Source: a bacterium
GTDB lineage: Bacteria > Patescibacteriota > Minisyncoccia > Phycocordibacterales > UBA2100
NCBI GenBank assembly: GCA_009924895.1
Contig: RFQR01000008.1
Location: 1-62,025 of the forward strand
Length of the DNA: 62,025 nucleotides
Direction of reading: 5' to 3'
The notes below the pieces were generated by a model. The model saw nothing but the letters and a program-made list of their open reading frames with translations. It was not told the DNA's origin and ran no database searches. Both the position numbers and the translations under genes were made by a program. This document shows, one piece after another, positions 11,143-17,769 of the stretch. Numbering within the stretch: the first letter of the stretch is position 1; each line of letters begins with the position of its first letter.

Positions 11143-11655
11143 TCAGCGAAGTAATGTTTTCCACTCGTAACGCAGCCCATTCTCCTCACGAGACTCGCGG
11201 CTTTGTTCTTTCACAAAGAGATGCTCGTACTCAGGGAAAAACGTATCAGCTTCTGGCGCATCTTCGACTACGGTAAGGTGAACAAGATCCACAAAGGGTA
11301 GCGCTTGCTCGTATATCTGAGCACCGCCACCAATATGAATTTCTTCTCCCCCTTTTTGAGTACGTGCCAGTTCAAGGCCTTCTTCAAGCGTAGAGACAGG
11401 AAACACGCTTTCAAGCTTCGCAACTTTTTCCTTATCACGGGTTATAACGATATTTGCTCGCTCAGGCAGTGGCTTGCCGCGAATAGCTACAATCGAGTCA
11501 AACGTTTTGCGACCCATGACGACAGGGTGACCACGAGTCAGGTCGCGAAAGCGTTTTAGATCTTCCGGCAAATGCCACAGGAGCTTGTTCTGGTTACCCA
11601 GTCCACGGTTTTCTCCGATTGCAACCACGATCACCACGTTTGACTCTTTGTACAT
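11143..11655 (-). CDS. folA: Dihydrofolate reductase
   Basis: LLWHLPEDLKRF, VVMGRKTF, PLPERANIVIT, IGGGAQIY, ADTFFP. Confidence 0.95.
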   Translation of the reverse strand: MYKESNVVIVVAIGENRGLGNQNKLLWHLPEDLKRFRDLTRGHPVVMGRKTFDSIVAIRGKPLPERANIVITRDKEKVAKLESVFPVSTLEEGLELARTQKGGEEIHIGGGAQIYEQALPFVDLVHLTVVEDAPEADTFFPEYEHLFVKEQSRESREENGLRYEWKTLLR

Positions 11656-11657
11656 AG

Positions 11658-12008
11658 CTAAACGCGAGTGCGTCTGAGCGTAATGCCCGGGATACCGCTT
11701 GGCAGTATCGATGGTTTTCGGATGGTAACTTCAGCATCTAAAATTCTCGCATCCTCAAAAATTCTATCAATCACCAGCTGAGGAATTTTTTCAATAAAAT
11801 AATGTGGACCGCTCGCCACAACCTCTTGCACTATATTTCTAAAATCAACATAGTTAATGGTATCGGCAAGCCTGTCAGAGACGGCACTGCGAGACGCATC
11901 AAACGAGGCTCGAATGTCAAACACAAACTCTTGTTCGAGTTTGCGTTCGTGAGACATGACGCCATGCCTCCCCGCCACACTCAAGCCCTCAATAAAAACA
12001 CGGTCCAT
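11658..12008 (-). CDS. folB: Dihydroneopterin aldolase
   Basis: MDRVFIEGL..HGV..ERKLEQEF, SDRLADTINY, VTIRKP. Confidence 0.88.
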   Translation of the reverse strand: MDRVFIEGLSVAGRHGVMSHERKLEQEFVFDIRASFDASRSAVSDRLADTINYVDFRNIVQEVVASGPHYFIEKIPQLVIDRIFEDARILDAEVTIRKPSILPSGIPGITLRRTRV

Positions 12009-12017
12009 ACAGGCAGT

Positions 12018-12725
12018 TTACTTGTTCTGAGGTGCATTTTCAAACAGCGGCCGATACATGTCGTCTTCGATAGAAATTGCAAGCTCGGCAGTATTCACGG
12101 TGTCAGTAAAAAAAACCGGCGCATCAGTAATGAGCGCAAGTGGTTGCTGCTCCTTACCCTCACCCATACACACAACAGCAGAGGCAGCGAGCGCATCCGC
12201 GACATCTGATCGTGTCATAGCAAGGGGACGGCCAAAAATATCGGGTGTGCCAATGTAATTTCGTATACCCTCAAATCCTACATAGCCCATGGCGACACCC
12301 ATCGTACCTGCATGCAAAGGACTCGTGCGACTGTCAGTAATCAGTATGCCAAAGTTTGTAAGGCCAAAGTGCGTACGAAGTCGTTCACGCAGCTTCATCG
12401 CAGAATGATAACTGTCTTTCGGCAGTAAAATGATTTTTCCATCGGCATTTGACTCATCAACGCCAGCATTCGGCATTACTTGTCCATCTTTAACGGTAAG
12501 CCAGCAGTGTTTTGTTGATATCGCTCATTCACTTTCTGATTGAATAAGAGCATCTTTGTCTTCCTTACGTAGTGCCAGCACTACGCGCCCTTCTGTGAGT
12601 GCCGCTATTTTTGAAGTGACAACCAGCACTGAGTTTTCTGGAACCTTGTCTATATGCTCGAGAATAAAATCAAACAAGGGCTCACGCTCGAGAAAAACAC
12701 GCGTTGTAATCGGTGTTACCTGCAT
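12018..12725 (-). pseudogene. CofE-like gamma-glutamyl ligase (FolC2-like) with one in-frame TGA
   Basis: VVTSKI, NAGVDESN, ITDSRTSPL..G, DIFGRPL, MGEG.EQQP; the two ORF halves are in frame across TGA at 12525-12527. Confidence 0.75.
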
Positions 12726-12758
12726 AACAGCATCATACCAAGATGGCTACTCGTCGCC

Positions 12759-15351: not shown

Positions 15352-15386
15352 CGGGAAATTATAGTGCCGTGTGATACAATGTTTTT

Positions 15387-15722
15387 ATGGATTTTAGAGA
15401 ATACCAAAAAAATGCGAATAAAACCGCCGCGTTTAAGAACCTCCAAAAAGAGCAGGCGTTACTCTATGTGACACTTGGTGTTGCGGGCGAAGTCGGCGAA
15501 CTCGTAAACAAAGTTAAGAAAATTATTCGCGATGACAATGGCATCCTTACTAAAGAGAAGGCCCGAGAGATTCAATACGAAACTGGTGATGTTCTGTGGT
15601 ATATCTCACAAATTGCTCGCCTCACCGGCAGCTCAATTGAAAAAGTTGCAGAAATGAACATTCAAAAACTGCACGCTAGAAAGAAGCGCGGCACGATACA
15701 GGGGGCGGGCGACTATAGATAA
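15387..15722 (+). CDS. MazG-like all-alpha NTP pyrophosphatase
   Basis: LGVAGEVGEL..VKK..RD, ETGDVLWY, NIQKL..RKKRG. Confidence 0.88.
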   Translation: MDFREYQKNANKTAAFKNLQKEQALLYVTLGVAGEVGELVNKVKKIIRDDNGILTKEKAREIQYETGDVLWYISQIARLTGSSIEKVAEMNIQKLHARKKRGTIQGAGDYR

Positions 15723-15723
15723 T

Positions 15724-16452
15724 ATGAGAAAAGGTGTACAGCACACGCGAGGAAAGAAAACACCGGGCAAGCTCATCGTACTCGACGGGTCTGATGGCGT
15801 GGGCAAATCCACCCAGACGAAATTGCTGCTTGATCGCTTAAAAAAAGAGAAAGTGAAGGTACAAACGCTTGATTTCCCCCAGTACTCAGAGCATTTTTTT
15901 GGAAAACTGCTTGGCGATTGTCTCTCCGGTAAACACGGAGACTTTATTGGAGTCGACCCCTACATTGTCTCTGTGCTCTACGCCGCCGATCGCTGGGAAT
16001 CTAAAGCAAAGCTAGAATCGTGGCTCTCGTCAGGAACAAACGTTATTCTCAACCGCTACGTCAGTTCAAATCAGATGCACCAAGGTGGCAAAATCGCTGA
16101 TTTGAAAAAGCGTAAAGAATTTTTAAATTGGCTCGACACGCTTGAGCACAAAATCTTTGCACTCCCGCGCCCGGAGATCATCTTTTATCTCAACCTTCCC
16201 GTTGAGCTTTCGCTTCGCCTTTTGGCTGAACGGAGCGAAAAGGAGAAACGCAAGTATATCGCACTCGGCTCACTCGATCAGGCAGAAAGTAACGTGAAGC
16301 ACCTTGCAGATACTCAAAAGAGCGCACTTGCCATCATTCAGAAAAATAGTACCTGGAAAAAGATAGATTGTGCCAATGAACAGGGCATTTTGCCGCGTGA
16401 AGTAATCCATGAGAGACTATATTCACACGTATCCAAAATAATCCGCATATGA
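15724..16452 (+). CDS. tmk: Thymidylate kinase
   Basis: DGSDGVGKSTQ P-loop, DFPQY, LYAADR, NRYVSSN. Confidence 0.9.
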   Translation: MRKGVQHTRGKKTPGKLIVLDGSDGVGKSTQTKLLLDRLKKEKVKVQTLDFPQYSEHFFGKLLGDCLSGKHGDFIGVDPYIVSVLYAADRWESKAKLESWLSSGTNVILNRYVSSNQMHQGGKIADLKKRKEFLNWLDTLEHKIFALPRPEIIFYLNLPVELSLRLLAERSEKEKRKYIALGSLDQAESNVKHLADTQKSALAIIQKNSTWKKIDCANEQGILPREVIHERLYSHVSKIIRI

Positions 16453-16503
16453 TCTAATTTATTTGGTACTCTGCATTTCACTACCGGCTAAACCCTAAAC
16501 CCT

Positions 16504-17769
16504 ATGAACTACCCCCATATCAAACGTCAGGACAAAGCAGTCTACAAAACACTTGAAGGCGAAGAGAAACGTGAGGCAGAAGGTCTTGAGCTCATCCCTT
16601 CAGAAAACTATGCGTCAATGGCAGTGCGTGAAGCAAATGCGTCTATTTTTACGAACAAGTATTCAGAAGGATACCCGGGCAAGCGCTACTATGGTGGCCA
16701 GAGATTCACCGATGAGGTAGAGCGCATCGCAATAGAGCGTGCAAAAAAGCTCTTTGGTGCAGCATTTGCAAATGTGCAACCACACGCTGGCGCTGCTGCA
16801 AACGTGGCGATATACTTTGCACTCCTTGAACCAGGCGACACGGTACTCGGTATGGATCTCTCTCATGGCGGCCATCTTACCCACGGCCACCCGGTCACCT
16901 ATCTCACCAAAATTTTCAGATTCGTGCGATACAAAATGAAAAACGTCGAGACAGGCGAAATGGACTACGATGCTATGCGCGAAGTAGCGCTCAAAGAGAA
17001 ACCTAAGATTCTTCTTGCGGGTCACTCAGCATATCCTCGCGAGCTTGACTACCAGCGCATGGCTGATATAGCGCACGAAGTCGGCGCGATTGCCATCATG
17101 GATGCGGCGCACATCGCAGGCTTGATAGCTGGTAAAGCGGTGAAAAATCCATTTGATTATGGATTTGATGTAATGACGACTACCACACACAAGACCTTGC
17201 GTGGCCCCCGTGGTGGCATGATTCTCACGCGCGAGTCAGAAGAAATTGCAAAGAAGATTGATAAGGCTGTTTTCCCAGGCTTTCAGGGGGGACCACTCAT
17301 GCACAACATAGCCGCAAAAGCTGTGTGTTTTGGAGAGGCTCTTTCTCCGAAGTTTAAGTCATATGCAAAGCAGGTATTAAAGAACGCAAAAGCGATGGAG
17401 AGAGTCTTTGCGAAAGCCGGAGTAAAGATGATTACCGGCGGCACTTCAAATCACTTGCTTCTTGTTGATGTATGGACTTCATTTGGCATCGGCGGCCGTG
17501 AAGCAGAAACGCTTCTTGATTCCGTCGGCATGACACTCAACATGAACTCAATTGCAGATGATACAAGGAAGCCAATGGACCCATCTGGCATTCGATTTGG
17601 GACACCAGCTGCTACAACCCGTGGTTTCAAAGAAAAGGAGTGTGCTCGTATTGCTGAACTGATGATTGAAACGATCAAAAATCGCACTGACAAAAAAGTC
17701 CTCGCAAAAGTGCAGGCTGAGATCAAAAAGATGTGCAAAAAGCATCCGGTGCCGAAGCGCTTTGTGTAG
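16504..17769 (+). CDS. glyA: Serine hydroxymethyltransferase
   Basis: LIPSEN, NKYSEGYPGKRYYGG, GGHLTHG, TTTTHKTLRGPRGG. Confidence 0.97.
   Translation: MNYPHIKRQDKAVYKTLEGEEKREAEGLELIPSENYASMAVREANASIFTNKYSEGYPGKRYYGGQRFTDEVERIAIERAKKLFGAAFANVQPHAGAAANVAIYFALLEPGDTVLGMDLSHGGHLTHGHPVTYLTKIFRFVRYKMKNVETGEMDYDAMREVALKEKPKILLAGHSAYPRELDYQRMADIAHEVGAIAIMDAAHIAGLIAGKAVKNPFDYGFDVMTTTTHKTLRGPRGGMILTRESEEIAKKIDKAVFPGFQGGPLMHNIAAKAVCFGEALSPKFKSYAKQVLKNAKAMERVFAKAGVKMITGGTSNHLLLVDVWTSFGIGGREAETLLDSVGMTLNMNSIADDTRKPMDPSGIRFGTPAATTRGFKEKECARIAELMIETIKNRTDKKVLAKVQAEIKKMCKKHPVPKRFV

Follow-up and report, generated by a model that had tools for sequence, protein, structure and literature searches.

A gene cluster in a Patescibacterial chromosome (assembly GCA_009924895.1, contig RFQR01000008.1) probably encodes a housekeeping route to thymidylate in which cytosine is methylated before it is deaminated, such that deoxycytidine triphosphate (dCTP) would be converted to the monophosphate (dCMP), dCMP to 5-methyl-dCMP, and 5-methyl-dCMP to thymidine monophosphate (dTMP). 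The cluster lies in a stretch of 62,025 nucleotides that is referred to here as the window; all positions are those of its forward strand (1–62,025), and the window is contig C85 of its own genome, designated G000. Three proteins set the cluster apart: a homolog of the thymidylate synthase ThyA with aspartate where the E. coli enzyme has Asn177, a protein of the dCTP deaminase (Dcd) fold without the catalytic glutamate, named Dcd-P, and a divergently transcribed dCMP-deaminase-family protein. Only two cellular routes to thymidylate are generally recognised, one through ThyA and one through ThyX, and deoxyuridine monophosphate (dUMP) is the starting point of both. The initial annotation of the cluster placed methylation before deamination, and this order is supported by a match of residues with a known enzyme, by the co-inheritance of the genes, by the distribution of the dihydrofolate reductase FolA, and by a check of salvage enzymes.

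The proposed pathway begins with Dcd-P, which, lacking the deaminase glutamate, would release dCMP from dCTP; the MazG-like pyrophosphohydrolase of the cluster may do likewise. The Asp177/Pro147/Asn143 ThyA homolog would then, very probably, convert dCMP and methylenetetrahydrofolate (CH2-THF) to 5-methyl-dCMP and dihydrofolate (DHF). The divergent deaminase would yield thymidylate from the 5-methyl-dC nucleotide, in our preferred reading at the monophosphate level and possibly at that of the triphosphate. Phosphorylation of dTMP would fall to Tmk, and the folate cycle would be closed by FolA, recycling DHF, and by GlyA, supplying CH2-THF. In its carriers, the module would stand in for canonical Dcd plus ThyA, for Dcd plus ThyX, or for dCMP deaminase plus Dut plus ThyA. 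Every catalytic step is inferred, most notably whether Dcd-P acts on dCTP, on deoxyuridine triphosphate (dUTP) or on both, and at which phosphorylation level the deamination would take place.

A preprint (bioRxiv 10.1101/2024.12.05.627091) reports that phage deaminases encoded in cis are often selective for 5-methylcytosine (5mC) and proposes a conversion of 5-methyl-dCTP (5mdCTP) to thymidine triphosphate (dTTP) that bypasses the dUMP-using synthase; Patescibacteria, the Candidate Phyla Radiation and Parcubacteria go unmentioned in the parts of it available to us. No report of such a pathway in cellular organisms was found in the literature searched, and what is new here is a cellular version of a pathway logic that was put forward for 5mC phages in 2024 and placed there at the level of the triphosphates. 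Two surveys were made, one of the family to which the window belongs (101 genomes including G000) and one of 400 other Patescibacterial genomes from outside it. A broader proposition drawn from them is held tentatively, as falling slightly short of an even chance: that about one in 20 of the sampled Patescibacteria (18 of 400, from 11 families) and more than a quarter of the family (28 of 101) have given up the two established synthase routes for a uracil-free de novo route, in which a pyrophosphatase derived from Dcd acts on dCTP, a methyltransferase on dCMP and a specific deaminase on 5-methyl-dCMP, with the DNA remaining canonical and the methylase probably derived from phages. If true, this would be a third de novo solution to thymidylate synthesis in free-standing cellular genomes, with thymine built on cytosine. 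It would affect the annotation of genes now named 'thymidylate synthase', 'dCTP deaminase' or 'hypothetical', change how the metabolism of the Candidate Phyla Radiation has to be modelled, give a fresh angle on uracil avoidance in DNA, and bear on phage–host gene flow. It would also offer a source of 5mC-selective deaminases, which are sought for methylome sequencing, and make Dcd-P a natural case of a bifunctional enzyme family dropping one of its two activities.

Residues and kinship of the three variant proteins

In a HMMER alignment to solved thymidylate synthases, 'GFPSDVAG' of the ThyA-fold protein falls on 'GVPFNIAS', which aligns an aspartate with Asn177 of E. coli, as initially claimed. 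The protein is 278 amino acids long, the length of its homologs, and retains the fold and the equivalents of Cys146 (the catalytic cysteine, in a 'PC' motif), Arg166 and Asp169. The canonical ThyA marks Asn177, His147 and Leu143 are all missing, the latter two being replaced by proline and asparagine. In its list of structure matches, chains of the L. casei N229D mutant outrank wild-type L. casei chains. Replacement of Asn177 by aspartate is reported to turn thymidylate synthase (TS) from dUMP to dCMP, and positions 177 and 147 to be the ones that best distinguish TS homologs of cytosine-modified phage contigs from others (PMC8670742).

At positions 143/147/169/177, the enzyme reads N/P/D/D, as do all four of the Xp12-like enzymes examined (phages Xp12, ZQG1, RcSimone-Hastad and PaMx74); T4 gp42 reads D/T/D/D, and the canonical ThyA of relatives reads L/H/D/N. 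The N/P/D/D signature is invariant in the 28 family orthologs. Among the 18 orthologs from outside the family, Asp177 is present in every one, and position 147 is proline in 11 and valine or isoleucine in seven. A bulky residue at position 143 is described as excluding water, with hydroxymethylases and MilA having aspartate or glutamate there, and the change of Asp169 to asparagine as a mark of 5-hydroxy-dCMP synthases (PMC13326640). The protein from the window has asparagine at 143, not the acidic residue of dCMP hydroxymethylases (aspartate in T4 gp42), and it keeps Asp169, so the mark of the RB69 gp48-type 5-hydroxy-dCMP synthase is absent. Formation of 5-methyl-dCMP is reported for the Xp12 enzyme and for five of seven tested Asp177 homologs (bioRxiv 10.1101/2024.12.05.627091). 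Because its diagnostic residues match those of the Xp12 enzyme, to which it is also akin, the ThyA-fold protein is very probably a dCMP C5-methyltransferase (dCMP + CH2-THF → 5-methyl-dCMP + DHF), in agreement with the activity first suggested for it and with neither the hydroxymethylase nor the hydroxylase signature. We take the Xp12-type activity to be EC 2.1.1.54.

The kinship is seen in searches as well as in single residues. Among 4277 phage records with a match to the ThyA-fold protein, the best are Xp12-like (33–37% identity, 1e-46 to 1e-50), and among its 141 nearest aligned sequences from a library of 1.84 billion proteins, 91 have Pro147/Asp177 and 21 have His147/Asn177. In a FastTree phylogeny of 96 rows, built from every second representative and a reduced set of loci, the Patescibacterial Asp177 enzymes form one group (SH-like support 85), the Xp12 enzymes another, and the Asn177 sequences a well-supported clade of their own. 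Support at the deep nodes is weak: the tree does not resolve how the Patescibacterial enzymes relate to the phage group, and no donor or direction of transfer is drawn from it. Two fusions among the nearest TS relatives, a dCMP deaminase with an Asp177 TS (protein P0138) and a MazG-like PRA-PH domain with an Asp177 TS (P0190), link steps of the pathway in one protein. Further fusions of TS homologs, with HNH endonuclease and guanylate kinase domains, occur in proteins P0145 and P0248.

Dcd-P aligns over its full length with the Dcd enzymes of M. tuberculosis and E. coli, its best solved relatives, and keeps the 'RSS..R' segment. The catalytic glutamate of Dcd, which we take to be E138 in E. 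coli numbering, was said to be missing, and in the alignment 'LTLPIRN' of Dcd-P indeed lies on 'ITLELSN' of the M. tuberculosis enzyme, with proline in place of glutamate, so deamination should be lost. Proline occupies the site in all 25 family variant loci that reach it, and the 13 Dcd-family genes found near the module in genomes of the wider phylum all lack the glutamate (12 proline, one serine); the Dcd of non-variant genomes has glutamate in 25 of 25 cases. On the dUTPase model PF00692, the Dcd-P orthologs score 54–64 bits versus about 19–25 bits for the glutamate-bearing Dcd of the family. Dcd-P also contains 'GIIDASYEG', conserved in its orthologs, which fits 'G-x-[IV]-D-x-x-Y-x-G', presumably motif III of trimeric dUTPase with its catalytic aspartate. 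A C-terminal glycine-rich motif, motif V of the trimeric dUTPases, is absent from Dcd-P, whose C-terminal 40 residues are rich in lysine. We propose that Dcd-P is a dCTP and/or dUTP pyrophosphatase, which would give the monophosphate without deamination. In the main genus of the family, most glutamate-bearing Dcd proteins have asparagine for aspartate in the dUTPase-like motif ('GIINPGH'), and Dut was not found in those genomes.

The third gene had been described as dCMP-deaminase-like and divergent from thyA, and both points hold: a spacer of 64 bp separates the two genes, the product matches PF00383, and the zinc motifs H-x-E and C-x-x-C are kept (H92, E94, C118 and C121, invariant in 20 orthologs). 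An additional His/Cys3 cluster is likewise invariant in the 20 orthologs. Single-sequence searches of the deaminase and of the MazG-like protein against solved structures gave no match. A profile of the 20 deaminase orthologs matches the solved dCMP deaminases of PBCV-1 and S. mutans (the two best matches) and those of T4 and human (DCTD, 2w4l, E = 4.4e-4). On the ComEB equivalog TIGR02571, the protein of the window scores 21.8 bits, far below the cut-off of 219. The gene is proposed to encode a 5-methyl-dC nucleotide deaminase that would yield thymidylate; the MazG-like protein is possibly a second source of dCMP from dCTP, or a cleanser of 5-methyl-dCTP or dUTP.

Occurrence in the family and in the phylum

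Within the family, close orthologs of the Asp177 ThyA (66–100% identity) are present in 28 genomes, the variant genomes; 57 have a distant ThyA match alone and 16 have none, of which ten have a long ThyX. The Dcd-like gene adjoins the Asp177 ThyA at all 28 variant loci and the deaminase at 26, the remaining two loci being truncated at contig ends. With the deaminase profile, 27 of the 28 variant genomes exceed 180 bits, as does a single ThyX genome, G086. Of the 57 genomes with a distant match, 18 were read at residue 177: asparagine stands there in 17, and aspartate in G044. In relatives, the same locus is held by canonical thyA-dcd-folA. Taken as a whole, the family has at least four thymidylate set-ups at one locus, namely Dcd with ThyA, Dcd with ThyX, dCMP deaminase with Dut and ThyA, and the Asp177 module. 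A further pairing of this kind, independent of the first, is found within the family in G044 (locus L149:3329-6756, contig G044:C8), where a His147/Asp177 ThyA (145 bits) is accompanied by MazG, FolA, GlyA and a deaminase-like gene but not by a Dcd-fold gene.

Co-occurrence of the three variants with absence of canonical thyA and thyX had been named as a check of the idea. The co-occurrence is found; the absence holds for 26 of the 28 variant genomes and fails in two, which have a second thymidylate synthase (a canonical ThyA in G029 and a ThyX in G000). G029 is a 78%-complete bin, and its canonical ThyA, glutamate-bearing Dcd and Dut are grouped on a different contig from the module. The ThyX of G000 lies on a contig of 1.9 kb, C99 (locus L002, 1–1891), beside an HNH-like fragment. 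It is short and 43–48% identical to cyanophage ThyX, and it scores 137 bits on the Pfam model versus 51–66 bits for the family's own ThyX, a long form of 470–500 amino acids. The G+C content of C99 is 42.6% versus 48.9% for the window, and its tetranucleotide distance is equalled by 19% of null windows; the contig is probably phage or mis-binned DNA. The G000 assembly comprises 1.59 Mb in 117 contigs, and most relatives have 0.5–1.3 Mb; the names given to near-identical proteins put it in Kaiserbacteria/Parcubacteria. G+C content across the G000 contigs spreads from about 43% to 51%, and some short contigs may be foreign, for example C72, a tetranucleotide outlier (p ~0.007).

Dihydrofolate reductase (DHFR) was found in 89 of the 101 genomes, including all 28 variant genomes (the match is weak in G100 and split in G091), and is missing from nine of the ten ThyX genomes and from three synthase-less genomes. 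DHFR thus tracks ThyA of either type, which favours methyl transfer with release of DHF over hydroxymethyl transfer, as had been argued from the linkage to FolA in the window. True dUTPases (76–122 bits) occur in 12 genomes of the family, and among the variant genomes solely on the doubtful contig of G029. Salvage was checked in the five carriers with the most contiguous assemblies, two of them single contigs: no thymidine kinase TK1 over the cut-off, no separate deoxynucleoside kinase (dNK) and no other thymidylate synthase was found, the dNK matches being cross-hits on the tmk gene of the module. Ribonucleotide reductase is present in G000.

Outside the family, Asp177 ThyA orthologs of 41–68% identity were found in 18 of the 400 genomes, from 11 families, and in none of the 18 does a second PF00303 gene pass the cut-off. 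Where weaker ThyA matches were inspected, all 11 proved to have His147/Asn177. ThyX accompanies the ortholog in one of the 18 carriers, G470. Seventeen carriers have the deaminase family, 12 of them with a strong score, and at eight of the 18 loci it lies within 1.5 kb of the Asp177 ThyA; a Dcd-family gene stands near the module in 13. The association of Asp177 ThyA, glutamate-less Dcd and deaminase is far beyond chance. The three variants, whose signature residues and co-inheritance are read directly from the genomes, travel together. In 28 of the 101 genomes of the family, and in 18 from 11 families outside it, they occupy the chromosomal locus that canonical ThyA or ThyX would otherwise hold, and this part of the original interpretation is supported.

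Alternative readings and points of tension

Since dCMP deaminase, dUTPase and ThyA form a standard pathway trio, the cluster could encode the ordinary uracil route, in which a normal deaminase would convert dCMP to dUMP, Dcd-P would act as a dUTPase, and the ThyA homolog would methylate dUMP despite Asp177. This route is present in the family: in G067, G070, G072 and G003, ThyA and a true Dut are accompanied by a weak match to the deaminase. The dUTPase-like 'G-I-I-D-x-x-Y-x-G' is retained in Dcd-P, which also scores on the dUTPase model, and NCBIfam would give all three proteins canonical function names. We nevertheless consider it unlikely. The Xp12 methylase signature Asp177, Pro147 and Asn143 is invariant throughout the family orthologs, and Asp177 throughout those of the phylum; the reported effect of Asn177>Asp is a switch of TS from dUMP to dCMP (PMC8670742). 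The uracil route also leaves unexplained why the loss of the Dcd glutamate, the special deaminase lineage and Asp177 should change jointly.

It is improbable, too, that the module serves DNA modification in the manner of a phage, with the cell's own cytosine partly or wholly replaced by 5mC as in Xp12 and with the deaminase diverting some 5-methyl-dCTP to dTTP. The gene set does parallel the Xp12-like phage module, a cytosine-replacing system needs a dCTP-destroying enzyme such as Dcd-P or MazG could be, and mSCD-B5, a 5mC-selective deaminase (mSCD) of phage, acts on 5mdCTP (bioRxiv 10.1101/2024.12.05.627091). Genes for C5-cytosine DNA methyltransferases are, however, present in eight of the 28 variant genomes versus 11 of the 73 others, with two in G000, and such sequence-specific enzymes would be pointless on fully 5mC DNA, which argues against wholesale replacement of cytosine. 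Apart from Tmk, which is ordinary and single-copy, the module has no nucleotide kinase, and it replaces thymidylate synthase at a housekeeping locus. The two readings are not fully exclusive, as both methylate first and deaminate later.

The pairing of MilA with MilB resembles that of a TS homolog with a nearby deoxyribosyltransferase-like open reading frame (ORF), and one such ORF lies close by in the window. Asp177 is also common to T4 gp42, RB69 gp48 and MilA-type enzymes (PMC13326640), yet a ThyA homolog that makes 5-hydroxymethyl- or 5-hydroxy-dCMP, or uses CMP, for a hypermodified base or a nucleoside natural product, like T4 gp42, RB69 gp48 or MilA with MilB, is very improbable indeed, given that residue 143 is neither aspartate nor glutamate and residue 169 is not asparagine, that the DHFR linkage indicates release of DHF, that the deoxyribosyltransferase-like ORF is confined to the window's own locus among the 28 of the family, and that the module is nearly mutually exclusive with thymidylate synthases.

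Several observations weigh against the methylation-first pathway itself. Dcd-P, with its 54–64 bits on the dUTPase model, may be merely a dUTPase and not a dCTPase. The sole characterised phage counterpart of the deaminase, mSCD-B5, uses 5mdCTP and not 5mdCMP (bioRxiv 10.1101/2024.12.05.627091). The deaminase of the window is only remotely related to that of Xp12 (hhalign probability 10.9%). Four sets of genomes depart from a fixed module. G086, with ThyX and Dcd and without the Asp177 ThyA, retains the special deaminase; G470 has a complete module next to a Tmk-ThyX fusion; G374 has no deaminase match; and five of the 18 carriers outside the family, all from one family and with bins 74–85% complete, have no Dcd-family match. 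The module is therefore not rigid. Moreover, six of the 101 family genomes have no match to any thymidylate synthase, so life on imported thymidylate is possible in this family. G000 itself has a thymidine kinase (TK), a dUTPase-like gene and the ThyX contig.

Further detail is available on some of these cases. The deaminase of G086 is intact and lies away from the thymidylate locus (L146:4077-4583, contig G086:C6; 184 bits), and G086 is the sole ThyX genome of the family with DHFR. The fusion in G470 has 795 amino acids (L148:6155-8539, contig G470:C1) and lies directly downstream of the genes for Asp177-ThyA, Dcd-P, the deaminase and FolA. For the deaminase, a tblastn search against 50,697 phage records gave no match, and IMG/VR holds two related loci at 41% identity, neither with a TS or a Dcd within 4 kb; together with the remote relation to the Xp12 enzyme, these comparisons indicate that the Patescibacterial deaminase is a lineage other than the phage one. 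The dUTPase-like gene of G000 is on contig C63 (69657–70106; L004:1438-1887) and its product, at 37 bits, is a divergent dUTPase of the trimeric type with a clear C-terminal glycine-rich motif; the neighbouring genes have no obvious nucleotide function. Because of this gene and of the ThyX on C99, thymidylate synthesis in G000 is not strictly shown to be free of dUMP, and the initial label 'dUMP-free' was an overstatement, even though the methylation-first order that came with it is supported.

The locus and its relation to known systems

Ten genes were counted between positions 11143 and 17769 from the list of ORFs, Pfam and NCBIfam (Table 1). The nine that had been named at the outset are all in place; the tenth, the deoxyribosyltransferase-like ORF between the CofE-like gene and Dcd-P, had been overlooked, and it is not conserved in the module, being seen at this one of the 28 family variant loci. 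The CofE-like gene was correctly recognised and its extent has been corrected: it is full length, with relatives of 57–58% identity over 230–232 residues, and contains one in-frame TGA (12525–12527) at a site where relatives have phenylalanine or valine. Either a nonsense mutation or a mistake in the assembly could account for the TGA. An alternative genetic code is rejected as its explanation, as folA, the deaminase gene and tmk all terminate with TGA. In G000, MazG, tmk (the sole thymidylate kinase match) and the PF00303 gene (the sole one in the genome) are single-copy.

Table 1. Genes of the thymidylate cluster and the intergenic spacer, with positions in the window
Feature	Position	Strand	Basis
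folA, dihydrofolate reductase	11143–11655	-	PF00186 (DHFR_1) 153.8 bits
folB, dihydroneopterin aldolase, folate synthesis neighbour	11658–12008	-	PF02152 83.9 bits; TIGR00525 84.4 bits
CofE-like putative folate gamma-glutamate ligase	12018–12725	-	TIGR04132 (F420_ligase) 163.5 bits on C-terminal part
Small nucleoside 2-deoxyribosyltransferase-like ORF (Nuc_deoxyrib_tr-like)	12759–13052	+	PF05014 28.8 bits, equal to the Pfam cut-off
Dcd-fold protein Dcd-P	13165–13797	-	DCD (PF22769) 123.8 bits; TIGR02274 114.3 bits (cut-off 92.8); dUTPase PF00692 60.1 bits (cut-off 22)
ThyA-fold protein, 278 amino acids	13800–14636	-	PF00303 (Thymidylat_synt) 183 bits
64-bp spacer between the divergent thyA-like and deaminase genes	14637–14700	.	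Gene coordinates
dCMP-deaminase-family gene, divergent from the thyA-like gene	14701–15168	+	PF00383 36.7 bits (cut-off 25)
Small MazG-like NTP pyrophosphohydrolase	15387–15722	+	PF03819 41.3 bits
tmk, thymidylate kinase	15724–16452	+	PF02223 73.7 bits
glyA, serine hydroxymethyltransferase	16504–17769	+	PF00464 480 bits

The cluster is flanked by ordinary chromosomal genes (PurC, NUDIX, DedA-like and GH130). A prophage island was considered and rejected on account of these neighbours and of the canonical thyA-dcd-folA at the same locus in relatives. A search of the window for tRNA genes gave none. An ORF at 9631–11127 (+) encodes a cysteine-rich protein of 498 amino acids with a hydrophobic N-terminal segment and no Pfam match.

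Compared with canonical ThyA (EC 2.1.1.45), the ThyA-fold protein shares the fold, Cys146, Arg166, Asp169, the FolA and GlyA partners, and the locus beside dcd and folA. It differs in the changes Asn177>Asp, His147>Pro and Leu143>Asn, and its proposed substrate would be dCMP instead of dUMP, with deamination following methylation. Dcd-P resembles Dcd (EC 3.5.4.13) and the bifunctional DCD-DUT in its fold, its TIGR02274 score above the cut-off and its 'RSS..R' segment, but has proline in place of the glutamate and is more dUTPase-like than the true Dcd of the family.

The logic of T4 gp56 and gp42 is similar in that a pyrophosphatase converts dCTP to dCMP, which an Asp177 TS homolog then modifies at C5; unlike the protein described here, T4 gp42 has Asp143 and Thr147 and adds a hydroxymethyl group, and the T4 product enters DNA. 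Animal dCMP deaminase (DCTD) converts 5-methyl-dCMP to dTMP. This salvage route shares with the cluster the deaminase family, human DCTD being matched by the profile, and an enzyme of the MazG type; DCTPP1, a MazG-like enzyme, is reported to act on dCTP and 5-modified dCTP. The animal route differs in that it disposes of what DNA breakdown leaves behind and is not a de novo synthesis.

The closest parallel is the module of Xp12-type phages. In the four Xp12-like phages read, the genes for the Asp177 TS, dCMP deaminase and DHFR are consecutive, and the gene before TS encodes a MazG-like pyrophosphohydrolase in ZQG1, RcSimone-Hastad and PaMx74 and is annotated as a HAD-superfamily hydrolase in Xp12. 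The phage and cellular modules have in common the N143/P147/D169/D177 TS homolog, with a deaminase-family gene and DHFR in cis, and the proposed logic of making thymidine nucleotides from 5-methyl-dC nucleotides and so bypassing dUMP (bioRxiv 10.1101/2024.12.05.627091). As with the mSCD of phages, the deaminase is encoded in cis with the Asp177 TS homolog, being adjacent to it at 26 of the 28 family loci. In contrast to the phage module, the deaminase here appears to be of another lineage, the co-varying pyrophosphatase is a derivative of Dcd and not MazG, and bulk 5mC is probably absent from the DNA, judging by the counts of C5-methyltransferase genes; moreover, the module belongs to the chromosome of a cell, where it replaces ThyA or ThyX.

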